Source: a virus (lineage: Duplodnaviria > Caudoviricetes). Taken from it: a stretch of DNA of 64,000 nucleotides. The notes under the pieces were generated by a model, which had not been told where the DNA came from, did not search any database, and saw only the letters and a list, made by a program, of their open reading frames with translations. The DNA lies in the IMG/VR virus record IMGVR_UViG_2890318599_000001, positions 655 to 64,654 of that record; one strand, given 5' to 3'. The position numbers and the translations under genes are program-made. Shown piece after piece: positions 37,773-55,361 of this stretch. Within the stretch, counting starts at the first letter, position 1. Each line of letters starts with the position of its first letter.

Positions 37773-39344
37773 CTACAGATCTGATTCAATCCATTCCAAA
37801 TCTTCATTATCTAAAGTTGAGGTGTCATCGTTGCTGACAACAATTTTTCCATTTCCATGGAGGCGTTGAATAGCTTGAGCTAATACATCGGCCACATCTT
37901 TCCAAGGACTTTTAGGGAAGAGGAGAATGCCTTGTTTGCTGTCATTATACAATTTATCGGCAATACTCTTTCTTATAAATACCATACCGGCTTCAGCTGG
38001 AGGTGTTGCCATGTTTGCCCTGGCTACTTTATCACCACCCGCAACTTCCACTTCAATTGCCACAATTCCCATTTTAGTAAGTGATTGCTTGGCGCTCTTA
38101 CCGGAAGCCTTTGCTTCAATATAGTGAGGACCTCCAATCTTTTTCATCCATCCTATGAGCTTTGGAAACTCATACCATTCCCATTGAACATCATCAATAT
38201 AAATATTGTGTCCAATCTTTCCTGCAGCAATAAATGCACTGGCCGCATTTTCATCCTTATCAGTATAAGCCAAATCCCAATCCTTACCATATTTGCTCAT
38301 TAGGTGTTTAGCCGGGAAAAGATGATCAGGAATTTCTTTAAACCACTTTTTCCATATCAACCCACCAGCTGGTGCCGGCATTTGATCCATTTGGCCTGCG
38401 AAGCCTGCTGAACCCAAATCTAATCTTGCCTCACTCACTGCTTTGGGGCCTAATCTAACAAGATCTAAATAGCCTTTGGTATAATATTGACGATATTGTA
38501 AAGGCGAAACATTTATAGAATCTGTTGCAGGTAATCGCACATGATGTATTGAATTCTTTTTCTTTTCAAGCAAATGGCCAGTTGGATCGTTTGTTGCCAA
38601 ACGTTGCATTATAAGGATCGTTACAGTAACTGCCTTATCTACCTTACGCATTGGTATTGTCGAATCAAACCAGGCATTAGCATTATTTACCTGATCAATA
38701 GAAGCGGCCTGTTTCGGGTTTAGCGGGTCATCAATGGTAATTATATGAGCATGCACACCGGTGACAGTACCACCGATAGAAGTTACATATCGCTGGCCGT
38801 TTTTGGTTGTACGATAGTTTGTTTTATTATCCTGATCTGATCTAATCTCAACTTCTGGAAAGTACGTTCGGTATTTGTCACTCCTGATGATGTTCCTTGA
38901 TGCCATTGCATGCTCTGTAGACAATGACATTGAATAGCTTGCTGTAATATGCCTTAGAGAAGGATCACGCGTCCAACTCCATGCCGGCGCCATGATGGTA
39001 GCAATAGTAGATTTTGATGTACCTGGAGGAATGTTTATAATTACATCTTTGTCTTTTGGGAGGCGCTTCCTGATTTTACGCTTTGGATTATTAGGATCAG
39101 GCACCATTATTCCTATAACACGTTCATAAGCCTGTTGAATTTCATCACACAACACATCAAGGTGCCAATTCCATACCAATTCATCCTCGACAATAATAGA
39201 CCACATCTCTTTAACGAAAAAAGACAACCGCCTACGGCTGAGTTCCGCGGCGGCAAGATCTGGGCTAAGTAATAATTGTCTTTCTTCCTTTTGAATTTCT
39301 CTGGCTTGTTCCCTTAAGGCTGTGCGAGGTCTTGCAGCTTTCAT
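37773..39344 (-). CDS. Terminase large subunit
   Basis: INIPPGTSKS Walker A, ITIDDPLNP Walker B, IMQRL, DWDLAY, IEAKASG and DVAD nuclease motifs. Confidence 0.95.
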   Translation of the reverse strand: MKAARPRTALREQAREIQKEERQLLLSPDLAAAELSRRRLSFFVKEMWSIIVEDELVWNWHLDVLCDEIQQAYERVIGIMVPDPNNPKRKIRKRLPKDKDVIINIPPGTSKSTIATIMAPAWSWTRDPSLRHITASYSMSLSTEHAMASRNIIRSDKYRTYFPEVEIRSDQDNKTNYRTTKNGQRYVTSIGGTVTGVHAHIITIDDPLNPKQAASIDQVNNANAWFDSTIPMRKVDKAVTVTILIMQRLATNDPTGHLLEKKKNSIHHVRLPATDSINVSPLQYRQYYTKGYLDLVRLGPKAVSEARLDLGSAGFAGQMDQMPAPAGGLIWKKWFKEIPDHLFPAKHLMSKYGKDWDLAYTDKDENAASAFIAAGKIGHNIYIDDVQWEWYEFPKLIGWMKKIGGPHYIEAKASGKSAKQSLTKMGIVAIEVEVAGGDKVARANMATPPAEAGMVFIRKSIADKLYNDSKQGILLFPKSPWKDVADVLAQAIQRLHGNGKIVVSNDDTSTLDNEDLEWIESDL

Positions 39345-39345
39345 G

Positions 39346-39828
39346 TTATTCGTCCTCCCTTGGTTTGCGGGCTAAAACTATTTTCTCGAGAACTTCATTT
39401 GATAATTTTGTATAATCTACATCTGAAGGAATATGTTTTACCTGCAGCGGTTTCTCTTCATCGCCTGAAATCTCTATTTTCTTTATTGAAAGTCCCTCAA
39501 GTTTTATAATTTCCTTTTCAATAGAAAGCAATGCCTTAATACCTTCAGGTGTTGTCCTGTATTCCTGCGCAAGTGAACGCTTCATGTGCTTTAATTCCTG
39601 AATCTTGAATTTCCTTTTTTTATCCAGCGATTCATCTTCAAAATCAATCCATCTTTCCCTTGCCAACTGGATCATTTTTTCAGCATGGCGTTTTGAATTA
39701 CTCCATTTTTGGTCAATAATATTTTTCAAAACCATAGCATGGGTATTACCCTCTATCAGCCATGCCTGGACAGCCAAGAGCCTTCTTTCAAATTCAACCT
39801 TAGTAGACCTTGGTGGCGCTTTCATCAA
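39346..39828 (-). CDS. Terminase small subunit
   Basis: Directly upstream of TerL; helical, with KIEISGDEEKPLQV C-terminal motif. Confidence 0.75.
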   Translation of the reverse strand: MMKAPPRSTKVEFERRLLAVQAWLIEGNTHAMVLKNIIDQKWSNSKRHAEKMIQLARERWIDFEDESLDKKRKFKIQELKHMKRSLAQEYRTTPEGIKALLSIEKEIIKLEGLSIKKIEISGDEEKPLQVKHIPSDVDYTKLSNEVLEKIVLARKPREDE

Positions 39829-40064
39829 GACGAAGGGTATAACATGTTTATGATTTCAATAAGGTCTTTTTGCTCCTGTATTATTGCGCGGATTTTAGAA
39901 GCCTCATCTTCCCTCTTTTGCTGAACCGATTCGGGTATATTTTCTAAAGAAGAAGATGATATTGCCGTTAATGCATCGATACGGTTATTCATCCTTTTCT
40001 GCAGGAGTTCGATTATTGGCTTTATTGTGGCTGCCATAAGTAATATTTTTTCTGTTTCACTCAT
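39825..40064 (-). CDS. Hypothetical coiled-coil protein
   Basis: 79 aa, ATGA overlap with terS. Confidence 0.6.
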   Translation of the reverse strand: MSETEKILLMAATIKPIIELLQKRMNNRIDALTAISSSSLENIPESVQQKREDEASKIRAIIQEQKDLIEIINMLYPSS

Positions 40065-40126
40065 TGGTTTCGATTTTCGGGTTGCAAAATTGCAATATCA
40101 CTACGCCAATGGGTGTCGCTTATTAG

Positions 40127-40198
40127 AGCGGCAAGGTCGATTCGAACGCCATCTCCTGATTGGTTAATCAGGCGCTATACCAGTTAAGCTATTGCCGC
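40127..40198 (-). tRNA. Non-canonical tRNA-Gly-like RNA (8-nt anticodon loop UUAACCAA, bulged T-stem)
   Basis: GCGGCAA/TTGCCGC acceptor, U73, D-arm GCT/AGC with GG, CCTGA/TCAGG anticodon stem, TTCGAAT T-loop; CCA not encoded (CTA). Confidence 0.75.
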
Positions 40199-40804
40199 AT
40201 GTTTCTTTGGGTATGGTTTTGCCGATTTCCGGCATTTATCTTTTAGTTGTTTCACCAAAGGGAATATATACCTGTGCTTGCCTTTCGTATAAACCAGTTC
40301 TGCATCCGGATCAATATACGTCCTAATTCATTCAATACTTTGTTTCCACCCTTTTTTAGCAATTGACCTGCCATGTATTACTTTTCCTCGAATCTTAAAC
40401 TTCGGTGTACCGCCGTTTAGTTCAGTAAGGCCTTCATATATCCAGTTCGTCGCTTGATAAATTGTTCCTGCATGTTCCTGGTCACAATCAGCGTATGAAA
40501 CAACAAGCCTCAATAACGGATTCATTTTCTGCAGCAACTTTAGTGAGATTGAAAGAGCCTTAGATGTATTCTCCTGTTTTCCATTTAGAGCTACCCTCAC
40601 TAGTTCACAGACTTGACCTTGTACCAATCCATATTTTTTGCCTTGGTGCTGGTTAGCACCGGAGGAATAAACAATACAACCGCACCACTCACCCTTATCA
40701 TTAAAAACAGAAAAGGAACATAGTGTCATAGGCATAGCTTTAGCGTAATGAAAGTTAAAGCATGAATATTTAACAGCTTGATATGATGCTATTTCAAGTT
40801 TCAT
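40184..40804 (-). CDS. mom: Mom-family (GNAT-like) DNA adenine modification protein, interrupted by in-frame TGA at 40328-40330
   Basis: HY, ELVRVAL, VVSYAD..QEHAGTIYQATNWIY.G; frame continues past TGA with KHRYIFPL...KPYPK. Confidence 0.75.
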
Positions 40805-41427
40805 ATTTCTCCGCAAGAAACAGAATAAAAAGATTCTGGGAATTCTTCTAACAAACTGGATATCATAGGCATCGCTGCTTCTAATTGCCTGGGGTTGCTG
40901 AAAGTTATTTTAATTGTTGCTGGCTTCTCCTTTCCTACAGCTGTAAGTTCTTCCGGAATAGGTAGCGTCTGAAGCATTTCAAATTGTTCAATCTCGGAAA
41001 GATTAATTGAATTAAAAATTTCGCTGTTTATCTGCAGGTCATAAATATTCATGAACGCCTGCATGCCTTCCAATGTGATTTTGGCATATCGTGACGAGAA
41101 AACAAGAACAAGTGCAGCTGCTTCAGCTTTGTCATTACAGTCAATGAATAAAGCGGGCAACTTTTCAGGAACACTTATTCCTTCACACTCTAATTCTTCC
41201 AGGTCATGCTTACGATGATATCCATCCAAGCACCAAATGTCATTATTTTCATCCTGCCACACATTGAATGCATCGGCGAATCCATTCGCAACCAACGATT
41301 CTTTCAATTTGGATTTATTGACTGCTGTATGCTCCTTGAAACCATCCTGTTGTATAAATTTCAATTGTTTCCAGTTAATGTTTTCCGTTCTAATTATCCT
41401 TGACTTTATTGTATTCTTATTCTTCAT
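40801..41427 (-). CDS. ParB/Srx-like N-terminal domain protein
   Basis: KLKESL...GF...VW...LDGYHR motif; ATGA overlap with the mom-like gene. Confidence 0.75.
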   Translation of the reverse strand: MKNKNTIKSRIIRTENINWKQLKFIQQDGFKEHTAVNKSKLKESLVANGFADAFNVWQDENNDIWCLDGYHRKHDLEELECEGISVPEKLPALFIDCNDKAEAAALVLVFSSRYAKITLEGMQAFMNIYDLQINSEIFNSINLSEIEQFEMLQTLPIPEELTAVGKEKPATIKITFSNPRQLEAAMPMISSLLEEFPESFYSVSCGEI

Positions 41428-41455
41428 TTTACTTCTACGCCGATTTATAATGAAG

Positions 41456-41463
41456 CAAAGTTA
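41456..41463 (-). promoter_or_regulatory. Bacteroidota -7 promoter element of the parB-mom-tRNA-terS-terL operon
   Basis: TAacTTTG on the minus strand 28 nt upstream of the ParB-like start. Confidence 0.5.
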
Positions 41464-41559
41464 CTTAAATAGATAATATATACCTTTTAAAGTAACTTCA
41501 TAATTATAAGATGTCAATCTTTTCAATCTTTACCTTTTTACAAGTAGTTAGCTTGAGTT

Positions 41560-42159
41560 TTATTTAAGCTTTATGGTGTCAAATTTCCCTTTTAGGTTTT
41601 TGGCAATAAAAGAACCAATTGATTCGGCATTACAGAGCTGTTCCCAGATTTCATTCGGTACATTGGTATATTGGTAAAATCCTATTTTAAACGCAACCTC
41701 AAGAATTCTCTTTAGCGGGAAATAAAACAACTTTTTTACGTTACTACTATTCAAAGAAGACTTTTCCAGTACTCCACTTGGAACGATGGTCTTAATTTCC
41801 AGTTTGCAGCTGTTCCTTTCCGAAAGGCGAACTGTTTCCGCTTCCAAATCAGTAACACATTGATTGATGCTTTCCAGGCTATCATAATTGTAAGGATTGA
41901 AAACGCGGTCATTTGGAGCCCGTGTTTCAGCCACAAAATCAATTAAGTAATAGACAGTGTTGTTTTTATTTGCCTCGAAAGCTTCTTCGAAAGTGTCATA
42001 ATCACCATTATTTACTTCTCGCCTGATAAGTCCTTCATCTTCCTTTTTGTCAATTTTTCGTGTTACAATGGCGTATCTTTTAGAGATTGCCATTACTTGA
42101 TAAGGGAGCGTTTCATTTGCAAAAATTACTTCGTCTCTGTATTTTAAATTGTTTTCCAT
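41560..42159 (-). CDS. Hypothetical protein with C-terminal KTSC domain
   Basis: SSNV...Y...LEVAF...YQY.NVP...L.NAESIGSF...KGKF. Confidence 0.75.
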   Translation of the reverse strand: MENNLKYRDEVIFANETLPYQVMAISKRYAIVTRKIDKKEDEGLIRREVNNGDYDTFEEAFEANKNNTVYYLIDFVAETRAPNDRVFNPYNYDSLESINQCVTDLEAETVRLSERNSCKLEIKTIVPSGVLEKSSLNSSNVKKLFYFPLKRILEVAFKIGFYQYTNVPNEIWEQLCNAESIGSFIAKNLKGKFDTIKLK

Positions 42160-45705: not shown

Positions 45706-46497
45706 TTAGAAATTGTATTTTGGAAAATCCCTTATCCTTAAATCTTCCGGCCATTCATCCATATCACCACCATGCCGGTCTTTTAATTTTAATTGCTTTG
45801 ATAGATGCGTTCCAAGTTGCTTCACGAATACGGAAATGTGTTCTCGTTTGCAGTCATTAATAATCTTTCTAATCCATTCCAATTCGCATGGCCGGTACCG
45901 GTATTTACCGTTTTCATTTCCTGATTCACCTCCGACAATAACCCAATCAATTCCAGGCAATACATGAAACGATTCTTTTAATTGCTCATAATACTTCATC
46001 GCTTTTGATAAGTCGATTTCACCATGCAGGGGTTCTAGGCTTAAAAACTTCACTTTAGCATCTATCTCGGTAACCAGCGATACCATTCTTTCTATTGCCC
46101 CCTGACTTCCTATGCTGGTTCCCAGCCACACATTATCCCAACCTTCACCCCAATCAGCTGGCAGACATTCTGGTATGCGTTCCGGCCTTTTGGTAAGTAT
46201 CTGGAAAGTATGCTGCGGGCATCTGCGGATAATATCCCAGGCTTCATGTCGGTAACTATCAATGTCAGGGTGAAAGAAGTCTGTAAGGGAACATGTAAAT
46301 ATTCTGCTTGGTTCCTTTATTGTCAATGGCAGATTAAATACTGTCTTTGTCCTGATAACCTGGGCTGGGTCATATCTGGTATTATTAAGGCTCTGCCGGT
46401 ACATGTAACAGAACTTACAATCAGCATCAACCTTGCTGCAGCCACGGGCTATATTCCAAGTGTGATCTGTCCAGGCTATACTACTTTCTTTTCCCAT
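45706..46497 (-). CDS. Gp37/Gp68 (DUF5131) radical-SAM-like protein
   Basis: IAWTDHTWN, GCSKVDADCKFCY, QILTKRPER, SLEPL, WVIVGGESG, FVKQLG. Confidence 0.88.
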   Translation of the reverse strand: MGKESSIAWTDHTWNIARGCSKVDADCKFCYMYRQSLNNTRYDPAQVIRTKTVFNLPLTIKEPSRIFTCSLTDFFHPDIDSYRHEAWDIIRRCPQHTFQILTKRPERIPECLPADWGEGWDNVWLGTSIGSQGAIERMVSLVTEIDAKVKFLSLEPLHGEIDLSKAMKYYEQLKESFHVLPGIDWVIVGGESGNENGKYRYRPCELEWIRKIINDCKREHISVFVKQLGTHLSKQLKLKDRHGGDMDEWPEDLRIRDFPKYNF

Positions 46498-47122
46498 TTC
46501 TTATTTTTTTATTGATATTAACTCCCCAAGTGGGTGTATTTTTATGACATTTACGGCATAGGCATCTACCGTTTTCAACTTCAAAAATTCTTTCATTTAA
46601 CAATGCTTCTTCTATTGTTTTGATATTATCTTCAAACACAATCTTTGCTAATGGAATAATATGATCTGCATCAATCGTTATATTATTTCCAGCTTTTTTC
46701 ACATTGCAATGTGTACATGTAAACTGATCCTTTCTATAAACATCTCTTCTCCATTTTTTATATCTTTCGGTATTCCTTATTTGTAGAATGAGTGAACTAA
46801 TGCCGCCTTTCCAGTTTGGATTTCCAGGTCCTTTATTTATAATTCTCATTTTTTGTTTAGAATCTTCAGTATGTAGTTTGCCTTTAAAAGTTGATACACG
46901 TCCTTTTGTAACGACCTTCACTTTTACTCTTTGACAGAATCTGCACTTAGATACTAATCTATCCCACCTTGAATTGTCAATATTGAATAGTGCTTTTGAT
47001 ATCCATTTTCTACATTTAAAGCACCACTTTAACCCATTGCTTACTTGCTGGTTATAAAAGTCTAAGTTCATACCTTCCTTTTTACAGAATTGCTTAATCC
47101 GGCCTTCTCTTGTTGTCCCCAT
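46481..47122 (-). CDS. HNH homing endonuclease with NUMOD3-like motif
   Basis: KGKLHTEDSKQKM, NPNWKGG, CTHC...ADHIIP...NGRCLCRKCH. Confidence 0.85.
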   Translation of the reverse strand: MGTTREGRIKQFCKKEGMNLDFYNQQVSNGLKWCFKCRKWISKALFNIDNSRWDRLVSKCRFCQRVKVKVVTKGRVSTFKGKLHTEDSKQKMRIINKGPGNPNWKGGISSLILQIRNTERYKKWRRDVYRKDQFTCTHCNVKKAGNNITIDADHIIPLAKIVFEDNIKTIEEALLNERIFEVENGRCLCRKCHKNTPTWGVNINKKIRNGKRK

Positions 47123-50503: not shown

Positions 50504-50686
50504 TTAACTTGCTTCAAATAATTCTTGTTGCGGGTTCCTTGGTTTCATTTCCTGTTTTATTACGTTGTCCAGGATTGCTTCATATTTTTTCATCCGCTTT
50601 CTAACATTACCATCACGGGTCAATTCATACTTCTTCTGAAGCTGCCTGACTTCGAAAACAAGTAATATGAATTGTGCCGGTGTCAT
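50504..50686 (-). CDS. Small phage protein
   Basis: F...V...RQLQKKY motif, ends QQELF. Confidence 0.6.
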   Translation of the reverse strand: MTPAQFILLVFEVRQLQKKYELTRDGNVRKRMKKYEAILDNVIKQEMKPRNPQQELFEAS

Positions 50687-52707
50687 CAGGCAACTTTTTT
50701 AATATTACTTCTTTGTAATGACAATTCATTAATGGCCAGTGTCATCCTGTTTGTCCATGCCATTACAACATGCGGCACGACACTATTACCAATAAATTTC
50801 TTCTGGTCTGTTTGGTTGCCATGCAATTTATAGTCGGCAGGGAAACCCTGAATTTTAAGAAGCTCAACAACTTTGAGCATGCGCATTTTAATATCAACAA
50901 TGCCGTACAAAGCCATGAATTCTTTAATTTTTACCACAATCGGCAAATCATCATCATAAACCTGAATTGCTATCTGGCCGGTTTCAGCATTTATAAGATA
51001 AAGTGGCGCCTTATCCTGTCTTGCGACAATAACTGGACAGGGCTTATCAATGCTGCCATTAGCACCGCCCCATGAAGGGTTCACTAAATATGCCCACTTT
51101 CTGTTAGCCGTAATTGTTGGTGCAGGCTGTTCAATAGAAGTAGGAGTATTAGCGTAATTGGTGTTCATTACAAATGCGGTTACAATGTTCATCTTCGGGA
51201 CAGTCATTAATGCCCCTGCAGGTTGTTCTACGCTTTGATGCTGCCCGCCTCCTGAAAAGTTACGGTCAATAAAATGCTGTGTGCTGACAAGACAATGCTT
51301 ATCGTTTGCAAGAATACTGCCTGCAGGCTGCTCCAGGGACTGATGATTGTCTGCCCCTCCATATTGCTTATCCAGAAACTGAGGATGAATGATACTCAGT
51401 TTGTCCTTACAGGTAAGCGTTGGACAAGGGTCGTTTATATCATTGGTACTGGAGCTGTGATGATAATTCACCAGATAATTTGGGTGGACCAATGCACATC
51501 TGTCTTTTGTAGGTATGGTCGGCGCCGGTTCATTGACGCTTGAATTGTTATCTCCATTTCCATAATAAGCGTGTAAGAAAGCAGCCTGAATTAAATCCTG
51601 ATTTCCACCGGTAGATGTTAGCGTTCTTGCGGGTCCTTCAATATCCACAATCTTGCTTTCAGGATCACCGCTATTTCTTTGGGATATAAAGGAGGCCTGT
51701 ACCAATGCCTGGCTGTCAATACATTTAATTGTTCCGGCAGGGCCCTCAACTGAAATGTTTTTACCATCAGGATCACCAGAAAAATACTTGGAAATGAATG
51801 CTACACCTAATCTGTTTTGACAGGCTATTGTCGGACAAGGAGCGTCTGTTGATGGTGGATGGTGTACTCCGGCAGAGGTAGTCGAATTGTATTTTAAAAT
51901 AAAGTTTTCTTTACCCCCTGCAATATGTTTAATCAGTCCGGCATAAATGCGATCGAATGTTTTTGGAGAAAGTTCCTTTTTTCTTCTGAAAATGCTTTTA
52001 CCCTCATCTGAAAAATCCAGAACGTCTTTCACCGGCATCCACTTTTTTAAAGGAGTGTCAAACAACTCAGTTGATTCTGAAACTTTCTTTGAATGGGTTG
52101 GTTCAGGCCAAACAATCGGTAATCCTTCTTTAGCAAAGCATCCAAATAGCCTGTTTCGGCTGGTGTAAGCCCCAAAATCAGCACTATTCATTTGTTTCCA
52201 CTCGTCACGATATCCATAAGAACATAATCGGTTACGCCACCTGTTCCAATCGGTACCGTTCTTTCTGCTGACTGGTTTCCCTTTGGCATCTAATGGCCCC
52301 CAACTCATAAACTCGACCACATTCTCAATCTGAACGTAATCAGGCTTTATAGCAAGGATGTAACGGTCCAGGAAATCAGCGAGCGTCCTACTATCTGCAT
52401 CACGCGGTTGACCACCTTTAGCCTTGCTGAAATTGGTACACTCAAGGGATGCCCAAAGGATAAGTTTTGCTTTTGGGTATTTCCGCCGGTAATGCCTGAC
52501 AATATGTTTTAATCCGGCAAGATGTAATGTCCTTATATCTTCCTCAAAGTGTGCAACTTCCGGGTGGTTTGCCCAATGGCTTTTTATTGCAATAGGATCA
52601 TGGTTAACACATGCGATTACCTTCGCCTTTCCATCAGTCATAGAAAAACCTTGAGTCGTCCCGCCTGCGCCACAAAACAAATCGACTACTAAAAATGTTG
52701 GTGTCAT
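50686..52707 (-). CDS. C5 DNA cytosine methyltransferase with tandem repeat insert
   Basis: DLFCGAGG, ASLECTNFS, IENV.EF, RNRLF, IQGFP, IGNSV; repeated S...PA.TI units. Confidence 0.9.
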   Translation of the reverse strand: MTPTFLVVDLFCGAGGTTQGFSMTDGKAKVIACVNHDPIAIKSHWANHPEVAHFEEDIRTLHLAGLKHIVRHYRRKYPKAKLILWASLECTNFSKAKGGQPRDADSRTLADFLDRYILAIKPDYVQIENVVEFMSWGPLDAKGKPVSRKNGTDWNRWRNRLCSYGYRDEWKQMNSADFGAYTSRNRLFGCFAKEGLPIVWPEPTHSKKVSESTELFDTPLKKWMPVKDVLDFSDEGKSIFRRKKELSPKTFDRIYAGLIKHIAGGKENFILKYNSTTSAGVHHPPSTDAPCPTIACQNRLGVAFISKYFSGDPDGKNISVEGPAGTIKCIDSQALVQASFISQRNSGDPESKIVDIEGPARTLTSTGGNQDLIQAAFLHAYYGNGDNNSSVNEPAPTIPTKDRCALVHPNYLVNYHHSSSTNDINDPCPTLTCKDKLSIIHPQFLDKQYGGADNHQSLEQPAGSILANDKHCLVSTQHFIDRNFSGGGQHQSVEQPAGALMTVPKMNIVTAFVMNTNYANTPTSIEQPAPTITANRKWAYLVNPSWGGANGSIDKPCPVIVARQDKAPLYLINAETGQIAIQVYDDDLPIVVKIKEFMALYGIVDIKMRMLKVVELLKIQGFPADYKLHGNQTDQKKFIGNSVVPHVVMAWTNRMTLAINELSLQRSNIKKVA

Positions 52708-55361
52708 GCTCTATTTTCTAATAAATCAAATAATGAGGGAATACCCACTTGTTGCGTTGCTGCCTGACAATGAGAGGCACCATCTAAAAAGTAAGAAGGG
52801 TTAAGTTCGCAGGCCATTCCAAATCGTTTCAAAAGAATGGACCAGTATGGAACAGTCATCAGCCCACCGAAAGGGTCATACACGATATCACCTTCATTGC
52901 TCATCTGGGTAATTACCCTTTTTACAATATCAAATTGCATCGGGCACAAGTGCATTTCCTTTCCTTTGCTCCATTGCTTACCGTTAAGGGTAAGCATCCG
53001 CGTTATATCTGTCCATACTTCGTCGCTCCAGCTCTGGGGTTGGAGGAGCATAAAAGAAGGGGGTAATTTCCCTTTTTGCTCCAACAGTTCACCAACCCTT
53101 ACATGATGTTCAAAATTGTAAACTTCTTCAAGGCTGTGTTTTTTATAAAGCTTGAAAACCTCATCCGCTTTTAGGGACCATAAATCTTCAGGATCAATGA
53201 GCCTGTCGCCTGAACTTCGCGTGAAGCCATGGGCATCCACCTGCCATTTCGCAATACTGTAACCACTTTCAAGTTTGATTGGAAATTTAAGATCCCTGTC
53301 ATAAGGTATCAGGTTTCCTTCAGGAGTAACCATTACGGGCTTCCTTTTCAGTACCGGTTCATCGGCGTATGCATTACTAGTATCTGTCGGCGGCTTACGG
53401 AAAAGCAGAAGGTATTCGGGCATACCGACTCCCATCTTGCTGCCATCCTTACATTGCTCTGACCATCCTAAACGGTATGTTTGATTATTTTCCCTTACTA
53501 CGTCGGTAACAATAGTTTTCATGCCCATATAGGCGAAGCCATGTTTAACCATATGCTGAATGCAATCAATGTGAAAAGGATAAGTTGTCTGGAACCCTAA
53601 GCCTGTAATGCCAGCCGGTATTATCCTGTCTTTGACATGCAGGGCATATATACGACCTGGTTTCAGCACCCTAAATGTATCAGGAGTCAGATAGTCCATT
53701 TGCCTAAAGAATTCTGCATTGCTTTCCGAATGGCCAAAATCCGCGTAGTTAGGGGAATACTCATATTGATTGGAAAATGGCCATGAGGTAAGTATTAAAC
53801 CGACGCTGTTAGTTTCTATATTCTTCGTTTCCGGAACATTATCATTTTGGAATATGGCAAATTTGTCGGTACGTATTTCTTTGCGCTCTATGCCCATTTT
53901 ACGCGTGAGCTGCTGGGCCATTGCCGCTTGTGAAAGCCCAAATTTCTTTACGATATCTATCATCTTTTGAACCAGTTTATTGTGTTGTTTCCATTTGCGC
54001 TCAAGAGTCCTGCGGACCTCTCTTTCTGCCTCTGTATAAATAAGATCTACCCTTACCTGATTTTTTTGCAGGAAACGTAGTAACCTGTGTATGCTTTGAA
54101 TGAATTCATTGAACTTAAAACCAATACCCATGTAGATTGCCCATGAACAATATTTTTGAAGGTTGGTACCGGAACCAAGCATGGAAGGTTTCCCCCCGAT
54201 TTCAGGAATTAAACCGTTTGAGAAATCAGAAACAATTTGTTCTCTCAATTCAAGTGGTTGGTTACCAAAAACTGTTTTGATGGAAGGGATTGATTTTTCC
54301 AATGACTCCCGCTCAGATTCAAGGTCATGCCAGATAACACGATGTGCGGATAAATCCTCCAGGCGTAATTCAAGTACTTTTTTGATTCTTGCAGGCAGGC
54401 TTTCCCTTTTTTCTTTTGATGCTCCCTGTAGACCAAGTGCCAGACTACGGAATAAAAGGCCTTGGCCACTCTTTTCGGTACCGGTATCTTCATGGTTACT
54501 TGTAAGCTCATGCCACCTTAAATCAAGTTCAGGTAATATATATCCTTCATCATCTGCGGGATTACCGGTAAGGTCTGATGGCTTCGTGACAAATAAAGCC
54601 CATGATGCAACCCACAGCCAGAATTCCTCCTCTTTGCTCTCCAATAATGTCAGGTTATCTGCTTTTGTGCTATCCCTTTTGAAGAACCTTGTTTTTGCCT
54701 GGCTAACATCCATTACCCCAAGGAAATCTGCGTATGCCAATAGCTCTATATAATCGTTTGGTGACGGTGTAGCGGTAGCAACAAATCTATACATCACGCA
54801 TTGTACACCACGCCTATTACCATTAGGCCCTGCATCACCTGTAAACAATCTCATGAATTCACGGAAAGTTTTCGATCCTCCAAATCCCCGAAGAATGGAC
54901 GCTTCATCAAGAGATACCACATCAAAATATCTTGGGTCTATCTTGCCATCACGTATCGTCTCATAGTTAGTCAGGTAGATATCGTTATCATCTTCAATTT
55001 CTGATAAGCACCTGATGAATTTTGGAAGTTTGTTCCATCCAAGGATGTCTCTGGCGTCATTTATAAATTCAGCCCTGACACCCAATGGGCAAACAATCAA
55101 TCCCTTCCCACTTGTAAGCCTGCCGGCCTTTCCTAATTCGCGAAGCGTACAAAGAACTGTTTCAAGCTGTGTAACCGTCTTATGCAATCCGAAATTTGCA
55201 AAACACGCAGCCCTCCCATTCTCTACCAGCCATTTTACCATTAGCTTGTTATGTGGCTTTAACCTTGGGTTTATTTCGTCTACTCCAATTGAAAAGCCAT
55301 TGGAAGCGGCAAGTCTTACCTTGTTTTTCAGGAATTGGTCATATGGTATTGTCGGTGTCAT
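52704..55361 (-). CDS. SNF2-like helicase fused to an N4-C/N6-A DNA methyltransferase
   Basis: GLHKT, LDEAS and TATPSPND helicase motifs; TSWPF, HLCPMQ and DPFGG methyltransferase motifs. Confidence 0.85.
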   Translation of the reverse strand: MTPTIPYDQFLKNKVRLAASNGFSIGVDEINPRLKPHNKLMVKWLVENGRAACFANFGLHKTVTQLETVLCTLRELGKAGRLTSGKGLIVCPLGVRAEFINDARDILGWNKLPKFIRCLSEIEDDNDIYLTNYETIRDGKIDPRYFDVVSLDEASILRGFGGSKTFREFMRLFTGDAGPNGNRRGVQCVMYRFVATATPSPNDYIELLAYADFLGVMDVSQAKTRFFKRDSTKADNLTLLESKEEEFWLWVASWALFVTKPSDLTGNPADDEGYILPELDLRWHELTSNHEDTGTEKSGQGLLFRSLALGLQGASKEKRESLPARIKKVLELRLEDLSAHRVIWHDLESERESLEKSIPSIKTVFGNQPLELREQIVSDFSNGLIPEIGGKPSMLGSGTNLQKYCSWAIYMGIGFKFNEFIQSIHRLLRFLQKNQVRVDLIYTEAEREVRRTLERKWKQHNKLVQKMIDIVKKFGLSQAAMAQQLTRKMGIERKEIRTDKFAIFQNDNVPETKNIETNSVGLILTSWPFSNQYEYSPNYADFGHSESNAEFFRQMDYLTPDTFRVLKPGRIYALHVKDRIIPAGITGLGFQTTYPFHIDCIQHMVKHGFAYMGMKTIVTDVVRENNQTYRLGWSEQCKDGSKMGVGMPEYLLLFRKPPTDTSNAYADEPVLKRKPVMVTPEGNLIPYDRDLKFPIKLESGYSIAKWQVDAHGFTRSSGDRLIDPEDLWSLKADEVFKLYKKHSLEEVYNFEHHVRVGELLEQKGKLPPSFMLLQPQSWSDEVWTDITRMLTLNGKQWSKGKEMHLCPMQFDIVKRVITQMSNEGDIVYDPFGGLMTVPYWSILLKRFGMACELNPSYFLDGASHCQAATQQVGIPSLFDLLENRA

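Follow-up and report, generated by a model that had tools for sequence, protein, structure and literature searches.

A bulged tRNA-Gly-like gene that adjoins mom in phages and other mobile elements: a possible dedicated glycyl donor for DNA hypermodification

Introduction

Mom of phage Mu moves glycine from Gly-tRNAGly onto N6 of adenine in double-stranded DNA, as described by Silva et al. (Nat Commun 2026, PMC13219725; PDB ID: 8bv8), and the glycyl group subsequently rearranges to carbamoylmethyl. The enzyme is reported to accept all three E. coli tRNAGly isoacceptors and to reject Gly-tRNAAla (PMC13219725). Here, we describe a mom gene whose 3' end overlaps a 72-nucleotide (nt) gene for a tRNA-Gly-like RNA, both on the minus strand of a stretch of 64,000 nt (IMG/VR record IMGVR_UViG_2890318599_000001, positions 655 to 64,654, hereafter the window), which is a portion of a 4.27-Mb bacterial genome with 39% GC, in a region corresponding to a tailed prophage. 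Judging from sequence comparison, the RNA belongs to a widespread family derived from tRNA-Gly, which travels with mom on phages and further kinds of mobile element. This RNA is likely to donate glycyl groups to the neighbouring Mom, being chargeable yet shielded from translation, where both the charging and the avoidance of elongation factor Tu (EF-Tu) are properties that we infer from its features.

The Mom protein of the window is from the same family as the Mu enzyme (PF25680) and has apparent counterparts of Mu R111, S124, D149 and Y159, Mu R151 aligns to an Asp, and the local gene contains a premature TGA codon. The two systems also differ in their tRNA: Mu carries none and is described as taking any host isoacceptor (PMC13219725), whereas in 72 of the 159 mom loci surveyed here the gene is joined to that of a deformed tRNA-Gly. 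In term searches of the main text of the Mu study, no mention was found of a phage tRNA or of the gene neighbours.

The closest functional parallel is provided by the NP1-NP3 tRNAGly of staphylococci (Rietmeyer et al. 2020, PMC7826273). These are reported to be chargeable by glycyl-tRNA synthetase (GlyRS), to bind EF-Tu and the ribosome poorly, and to feed the GNAT-fold enzymes FmhB, FemA and FemB, with the discrimination sitting in the D and T arms (PMC7826273). A TGC or TGT in place of TTC in the T loop is found both in the staphylococcal RNAs (PMC7826273) and in 17 of the 58 distinct Mom-linked RNAs collected in this study. The RNA of the window is unlike NP1-NP3 in that it keeps UUC (within UUCGAAU) as well as GG, and it is not a member of that group. 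The two groups also differ in lineage (NP1-NP3 are described as chromosomal and restricted to staphylococci (PMC7826273), whereas the Mom-linked RNAs are found on phages and mobile elements), in the acceptor of the glycine (peptidoglycan for NP1-NP3, DNA for Mom) and in the type of deformation, which consists of weak T-stem pairs in NP1-NP3, and of a bulged A and off-size anticodon loops in the Mom-linked RNAs. Mom and its RNA are a variant of the theme of a non-proteogenic tRNAGly combined with a GNAT transferase, and what is new is that the pair sits on mobile elements and acts on DNA.

A related RNA has been described in the ssrA islands of Dehalococcoides, which contain a conserved tRNA-Gly-like 'pseudo-tRNA' of about 76 nt, with a 'DCC' anticodon, inside a mom homologue (McMurdie et al. 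2011, PMC3146451). As in the window, a ParB-domain gene of about 210 residues is found just upstream of the mom homologue in these islands (PMC3146451). The site of the RNA is different, as it lies within the first 150 bp of mom in Dehalococcoides (PMC3146451) and at the 3' end of mom in the window. In the account given there, no function is proposed for the pseudo-tRNA, and Mom is taken as a methylation-type modifier (PMC3146451). The link to glycyl transfer could be drawn only after 2023, and a literature search restricted to main texts found no paper tying such an RNA to the glycyl-tRNA chemistry of Mom.

The tRNA-Gly-like gene overlapping mom

The two overlapping genes are located as follows:
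Positions 40127 to 40198, minus strand: tRNA-Gly-like RNA gene of 72 nt (ARAGORN, Rfam RF00005, covariance model R1 and fold)
Positions 40184 to 40804, minus strand: mom (Mom family, GNAT fold), from the ATG at 40804-40802 to the TAA at 40186-40184 (matches to PF25680, phrog_1384 and 8bv8)

A preliminary description of the locus, made from the sequence alone, had read the mom frame as ending in ...KPYPKKHAAIA*, with its last codons forming the 5' end of a 72-nt cloverleaf. Translation, ARAGORN and Rfam all bear this out, nucleotides 1-15 of the RNA corresponding to the last four mom codons and the TAA. ARAGORN reports a single tRNA in the window (40126-40198, minus strand), as 'tRNA-???' with a four-base anticodon (aacc). 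The match to RF00005 (40127-40198, minus strand; E = 1.6e-7) has a score of 44.4 bits against a gathering score of 29, and it is the sole Rfam match within 39000-42000. This score is also the lowest Rfam tRNA score among the 50 tRNAs of the host genome.

The identity set of bacterial GlyRS comprises G1-C72, C2-G71, G3-C70, U73, C35 and C36, and all of these elements are present in the RNA of the window, as had been claimed: the acceptor arm is GCGGCAA/UUGCCGC, with a U as discriminator. The D and T loops are of the canonical type, GG being read in the D arm and UUCGAAU in the T loop. Two deformations had been pointed out, namely an anticodon loop of 8 nt and a T-stem of 4 bp from which an A bulges; both are recovered by direct reading, ARAGORN and Rfam, and the bulge is recovered by folding as well. 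The anticodon stem CCUGA/UCAGG carries the 8-nt loop UUAACCAA (40167-40160), and the T arm reads GGCG-UUCGAAU-CGACC, in which the A at 40137 is bulged out of the four pairs, just inside the two outer ones. The minimum-free-energy fold is a cloverleaf which includes the T-stem bulge, with a modest z-score (z = -1.94), and no CCA is encoded.

As a control, the T-stems of all 50 host tRNAs were compared. A regular 5-bp stem was found at the canonical place in 48 of them, the two exceptions being a tRNA-Leu (cag), which is a boundary artefact of the script, and the RNA of the window itself. All three tRNA-Gly genes of the host are regular. The host GlyRS is of the dimeric type (TIGR00389, 473.8 bits), and GlyQ was not found in the host.

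Survey of mom loci

A first set consisted of six close viral relatives of the local Mom protein (L001 to L006), in five of which the mom 3' end is accompanied by a tRNA, encoded antisense to mom in one case. The wider survey (L007 to L165) was made of the best 80 of 505 viral relatives and of 79 loci from contigs of one genome per species, each with flanks of 1.5 kb. Over both sets, ARAGORN places 36 Gly or Gly-like tRNAs, one tRNA-Met and one tRNA-Val at most 100 nt from the end of the mom match. A covariance model (R1) was trained on 24 Gly-like tRNA sequences, that of the window among them, and gives a match adjoining mom in 50 of the 80 viral loci and 22 of the 79 genome loci, i.e. 72 of the 159; 41 of these 72 loci are absent both from the ARAGORN calls and from the training set. 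The preliminary description had proposed such a model as a check, and the outcome is that mom in these loci does adjoin a cloverleaf which has the Gly identity elements and the T-stem alteration seen in the window.

The RNA is found in three arrangements: in 54 loci it is at the mom 3' end in the orientation of the gene, in 12 it is at this end in antisense orientation, and in 6 it is upstream of mom (at most 62 nt from it in five, and 489 nt away in one). The antisense copies show that the RNA is more than a cis element of the mom mRNA. The matches set aside as not Gly-like were L101 (a canonical tRNA-Val), L103 (a tRNA-Thr separated from mom by about 630 nt) and, far from mom, a match of 22.9 bits in L066. 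In a chromosome of Methanobacterium, the tRNA-Val (L101:2100-2176) directly follows a homologue of mom, and a tRNA-Met is found 6 nt after mom in a viral contig (L067:2109-2183). Both are more suggestive of integration sites than of membership in the family.

Conserved and relaxed features

The features of the 58 distinct sequences are the following:
Bulged A: 58 of 58
G1-C2-G3: 57 of 58
U73: 55 of 58
CC at positions 35-36: 55 of 58
Anticodon loop of 8, 7 or 6 nt: 29, 27 and 2 sequences, respectively
U, A, C or G at position 34: 40, 11, 7 and 0 sequences, respectively
GG in the D loop: 34 of 58
TTC in the T loop: 34 of 58
TGC or TGT in the T loop: 17 of 58
CCA encoded: 22 of 58

In the four helices, 98% of the pair cells are paired and both sides change in 18 of the 20 pairs, these counts being biased towards structure since the alignment used (A3) was fitted to the model. 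None of 500 shuffles reached the observed pairing/covariation, and controls in which the positions were slid are 34-47% paired. Helix 4, which bears the bulge, is 100% paired. The T-stem variants GGCG/CGACC, GGAG/CUACC, GGGG/CCACC and AACG/CGAUU covary, which favours the bulge over a model with two mismatches. The preliminary description had named a random decay of the stems as an outcome speaking against its proposal; no such decay is seen, and the stems covary. It had also raised the question of whether the altered anticodon loop is conserved, and the loop deviates from 7 nt in 31 of the 58 distinct members. As far as can be judged from these sequences, the family retains the positions read by GlyRS and relaxes the requirements of decoding, which concern the size of the anticodon loop, the identity of position 34 and portions of the D and T loops.

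Specificity and distribution

In the host genome, R1 gives the mom-linked RNA, which is one of its training rows, a score of 80 bits, compared with 53 and 44.5 bits for canonical tRNA-Gly genes. Over 150 other genomes of the phylum, a match with E ≤ 1e-10 was obtained in only two, and both matches are ordinary tRNA-Gly(CCC) genes, with Mom not nearby.

A FastTree tree of 142 Mom rows (71 carriers of the RNA and 71 non-carriers) has blocks of carriers and non-carriers on both sides of the midpoint root, and at least 13 changes of state are needed on it. Left out of the tree were the 23 rows of L007-L165 with fewer than 170 aligned residues, as well as L001-L006 (four of which duplicate L007-L009). 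Since many Mom phages carry no such RNA, it is a common accessory of Mom systems rather than a requirement. A search for Mom residues tracking the presence of the RNA gave no result: seven residue-by-column candidates (in six columns) differ by at least 0.5 in frequency, and there is no statistical power to interpret them as only six supported independent pairs are available.

Among cultured phages, Salinibacter phage B2_17 has a bulged-A member of the family 33 nt past mom (R1, 67.3 bits). In Microbacterium phage Appa (L172), a gene annotated as tRNA-Gly(ccc) is found at 2157-2228 on the minus strand, likewise 33 nt past mom and on the opposite strand from it; it has a regular 5-bp T-stem and reaches only 40 bits with R1. 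This mom-linked tRNA-Gly lacking the bulge may represent an earlier stage of the same arrangement. Phages phiEf11, BarretLemon and LP-114 have no such RNA near mom.

The Mom enzyme and its premature TGA

With the TGA read through, the translated mom frame matches PF25680 (Mom) over profile positions 8-202 of 202 (E = 1.5e-39, 136.2 bits). It also matches phrog_1384 (E = 2.2e-45) and the sequence of the Mu Mom crystal structure (PDB ID: 8bv8, E = 6.3e-5). In the pairwise alignment with the latter, which has a score of 25.9 bits, R74, S85, D110 and Y120 align to Mu R111, S124, D149 and Y159 (Mu numbering is the chain number plus 9, an offset derived from the position of S124A in the 8bv8 alignment). 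R74, S85 and D110 are invariant in the alignment of Mom proteins (A1). The residues which Mu Mom cannot do without are R111, S124, D149 and R151.

The frame is interrupted at the following position:
Positions 40328 to 40330, minus strand: in-frame TGA in mom, codon 163 of the translated frame and 159 from the ATG

The preliminary description had hinted at a broken gene by speaking of a 'repaired mom', and the gene is indeed broken, although the TGA at 40330-40328 was not spelled out there. Five of the six aligned relatives have a Trp at this codon position. Under table 11, long open reading frames (ORFs) of the phage extend uninterrupted over as many as 1586 codons, which indicates that TGA is a stop in this phage. 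A recoding of TGA to Trp was considered and rejected on the same grounds, and also because the only tRNA-Trp of the host has a CCA anticodon. No suppressor tRNA was found among the tRNAs of the host genome, and the RNA itself was rejected as a TGA suppressor, as there is no UCA in its loop. In a strain comparison aimed at the TGA, this DNA was absent from all 40 related genomes. Judging from the sequence, the local copy of mom is most likely a recent nonsense mutant.

In the survey, mom is uninterrupted in 69 of the 72 loci that carry the RNA, and broken in three. In one of these (L093, 1501-1949), mom is trimmed to its first 119 residues and a bulged-A RNA (74.8 bits) is found 21 nt further on, while in the two others (L115 and L132, around 1501-2185) mom is frameshifted and the RNA is intact. 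The combination of a broken mom with an intact RNA could reflect assembly errors, or an RNA which outlives its enzyme.

Proposed role as a glycyl donor

The preliminary description had interpreted the RNA as a dedicated glycyl donor, with Gly-tRNAGly as the co-substrate of Mom, and such a co-substrate is published for Mu Mom (PMC13219725). The interpretation is supported, every check that could be computed having turned out as predicted. As a donor, the RNA would be co-transcribed with mom and excised by RNase P and 3' nucleases, and its CCA would have to be supplied by the CCA-adding enzyme of the host, since none is encoded in the window. The dimeric host GlyRS would add glycine by means of G1-C72, C2-G71, G3-C70, U73 and C35/C36. 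The affinity of EF-Tu is described as being set by three T-stem pairs, 49-65, 50-64 and 51-63 (PMC3239215). The bulged A in this region, together with the off-size anticodon loop, would bar the charged RNA from translation. Mom would use the RNA preferentially and transfer its glycine to adenine N6 in double-stranded DNA, by the chemistry shown for Mu, and the glycyl group would end up as carbamoylmethyl-adenine, as also shown for Mu, blocking restriction enzymes.

The RNA could instead be a regulator or partner of Mom, acting either as an uncharged decoy which restrains the enzyme, or as an RNase P site whose cleavage removes the mom stop codon and limits output. Mom expression is harmful to the host, and the same-strand position of the RNA at or over the mom 3' end in 54 of the 72 loci (in the window, nucleotides 1-15 include the stop codon) would suit such a role. 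The invariant bulged A (58 of 58) is also what would be expected of a protein-binding handle. The 12 antisense and 6 upstream copies are however not explained by processing in cis, and what is conserved goes beyond mere shape, as it includes the GlyRS identity set (G1-C2-G3, U73 and CC). The CCA encoded by 22 of the 58 sequences also speaks against this role, which we regard as unlikely.

It is considerably less probable that the RNA is an ordinary phage tRNA-Gly used for translation, either for codon supply or as a replacement for a host tRNA cut by a defence nuclease, its adjacency to mom being due to chance or to shared timing. Phages do frequently carry tRNAs, two of the close relatives (L001 and L002) have a 7-nt anticodon loop with UCC, and the tRNA-Gly(CCC) beside mom in Appa is regular. 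Against this, the loops are of 8 or 6 nt in 31 of the 58 distinct sequences (the loop of the window is UUAACCAA), A34 is found in 11 and G34 in none, TTC is missing in 24, the bulge is present in all 58, and the association with mom holds across phyla, in the three arrangements described.

A +1 frameshift-suppressor type of tRNA, whose 8-nt loop would serve to decode a glycine codon of four bases in a phage gene, seems very improbable. Classical frameshift suppressors derived from tRNA-Gly do carry an extra base in the anticodon loop, and 29 of the 58 sequences have an 8-nt loop. Close relatives nevertheless alternate between 6, 7 and 8 nt, the extra base lies 5' of the anticodon and is variable, the T-stem bulge speaks against any use on the ribosome, and no shifted frame was seen in the prophage, where the long ORFs are open. 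Least credible is an integration-site (att) remnant or a decaying, functionless pseudo-tRNA: the tRNA-Met of L067 and the tRNA-Val of L101 are possible attachment sites, and the local copy does lie beside a broken mom, but the RNA is internal to the prophage, flanked by the ParB-like/mom pair and the terminase gene, and forms a complete cloverleaf, in a family with 98% of the pair cells paired and with compensatory changes across phyla.

Several observations weigh against the glycyl-donor role. Mu Mom uses ordinary host tRNAGly, which implies that a private tRNA is dispensable, and 87 of the 159 surveyed loci have no such RNA within 1.5 kb. In five whole phage records from Mom clades lacking the tRNA, four of which are at least 90% complete, no R1 match was found anywhere. 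The mom-linked tRNA-Gly of Appa, being regular, indicates that the bulge is not obligatory. A search for sequencing runs from which expression of the RNA might be judged gave none. Sampling also has to be considered, as the survey is biased by its choice of the best 80 of the 505 viral relatives and by many near-copies (58 distinct sequences in 73 rows), in addition to the fitting of the alignment mentioned above. For the local RNA, the minimum-free-energy fold closes the anticodon arm to 7 bp with a 4-nt loop, and such a closure, as modelled, might hinder the reading of C35/C36. For the local enzyme, Mu R151 aligns to an Asp (D112) in the 25.9-bit alignment, and the TGA aligns to Mu residue 199, within the helix-turn-helix-like insertion (residues 175-209) whose deletion is reported to abolish the activity of Mu Mom (PMC13219725). 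As mom stops at codon 163, the pair found in the window is probably inactive, barring read-through of the TGA.

A more elaborate version of the donor role is possible, but is put forward only tentatively. The RNA would be the orthogonal donor of Mom on mobile elements, with the bulged A serving both as the handle for Mom and as the shield against EF-Tu and the ribosome, and modification could take place in any host without draining or needing the translational pool of tRNAGly. The nested layout would act as a governor, excision of the tRNA removing the last codons and the stop of mom, and a given transcript would yield either enzyme or donor.

Genomic context

Upstream of mom on the same strand, the following feature was identified:
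Positions 40801 to 41427, minus strand: ParB_N-like ORF of 208 residues (Atlas leads to ParB_N-bearing clusters only)

The preliminary description had taken 40127-41427 as a unit formed by Mom and the tRNA. This holds for 40127-40804, whereas 40801-41427 is occupied by this separate ORF. The order on the minus strand is the 208-residue ORF, mom, the tRNA-like gene, two small ORFs and the large terminase gene (39344-37773, minus strand; phrog_38, E = 1.8e-73). The TGA stop of the 208-residue ORF overlaps the ATG of mom (ATGA), and translational coupling is likely in view of this overlap. No family was assigned to its product by the Pfam and PHROG searches, the sole Pfam row being LRR_EndoS, well under the cut-off (E = 0.1, 13.2 bits); a DGYHR motif is present. 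The last 50 or so residues of the ORF are kept immediately upstream of mom in 67 of the 159 loci, of which 44 carry the tRNA and 23 lack it. Phages phiEf11, Appa and BarretLemon have an annotated ParB-like gene upstream of mom. The ParB_N-like product may be a DNA-targeting partner of Mom. A scan of the minus strand for promoters and terminators gave nothing useful, the counts being no higher than in shuffled sequences.

The prophage also encodes a tape-measure protein and a DnaB helicase. In its large ORFs at 50686-52710 and 52704-55361 (both minus strand), PF00145 (E = 8.5e-29) marks a C5 cytosine DNA methylase domain and PF01555 (E = 2.9e-9) one of the N6/N4 type, and because of these domains the prophage can be said to have several layers of DNA modification besides mom. 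A KTSC-domain protein (PF13619, E = 1.6e-14; 41560-42159, minus strand) is encoded just upstream of the ParB-like/mom pair, and a DUF5131 protein (PF07505, E = 2.2e-57) at 45706-46500 (minus strand). Outside the window, about 750 bp left of its start, the host genome has a tRNA-His gene (G000:C4:632370-632444).

Implications

If the RNA does act as proposed, it would be a tRNA paralogue which is carried by viruses and genomic islands, has been taken out of translation and serves a DNA-modifying enzyme. This would explain how Mom-type enzymes can obtain activated glycine at a late stage of infection and yet not compete with translation. A natural pair of enzyme and tRNA which is insulated from the ribosome would also be provided, of interest to tRNA biology and engineering, and the bulged-A tRNAGly would be a simple sequence marker for adenine-hypermodifying phages in metagenomes. 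The recognition of tRNA by Mom becomes directly testable, as cultured carriers such as Salinibacter phage B2_17 exist.

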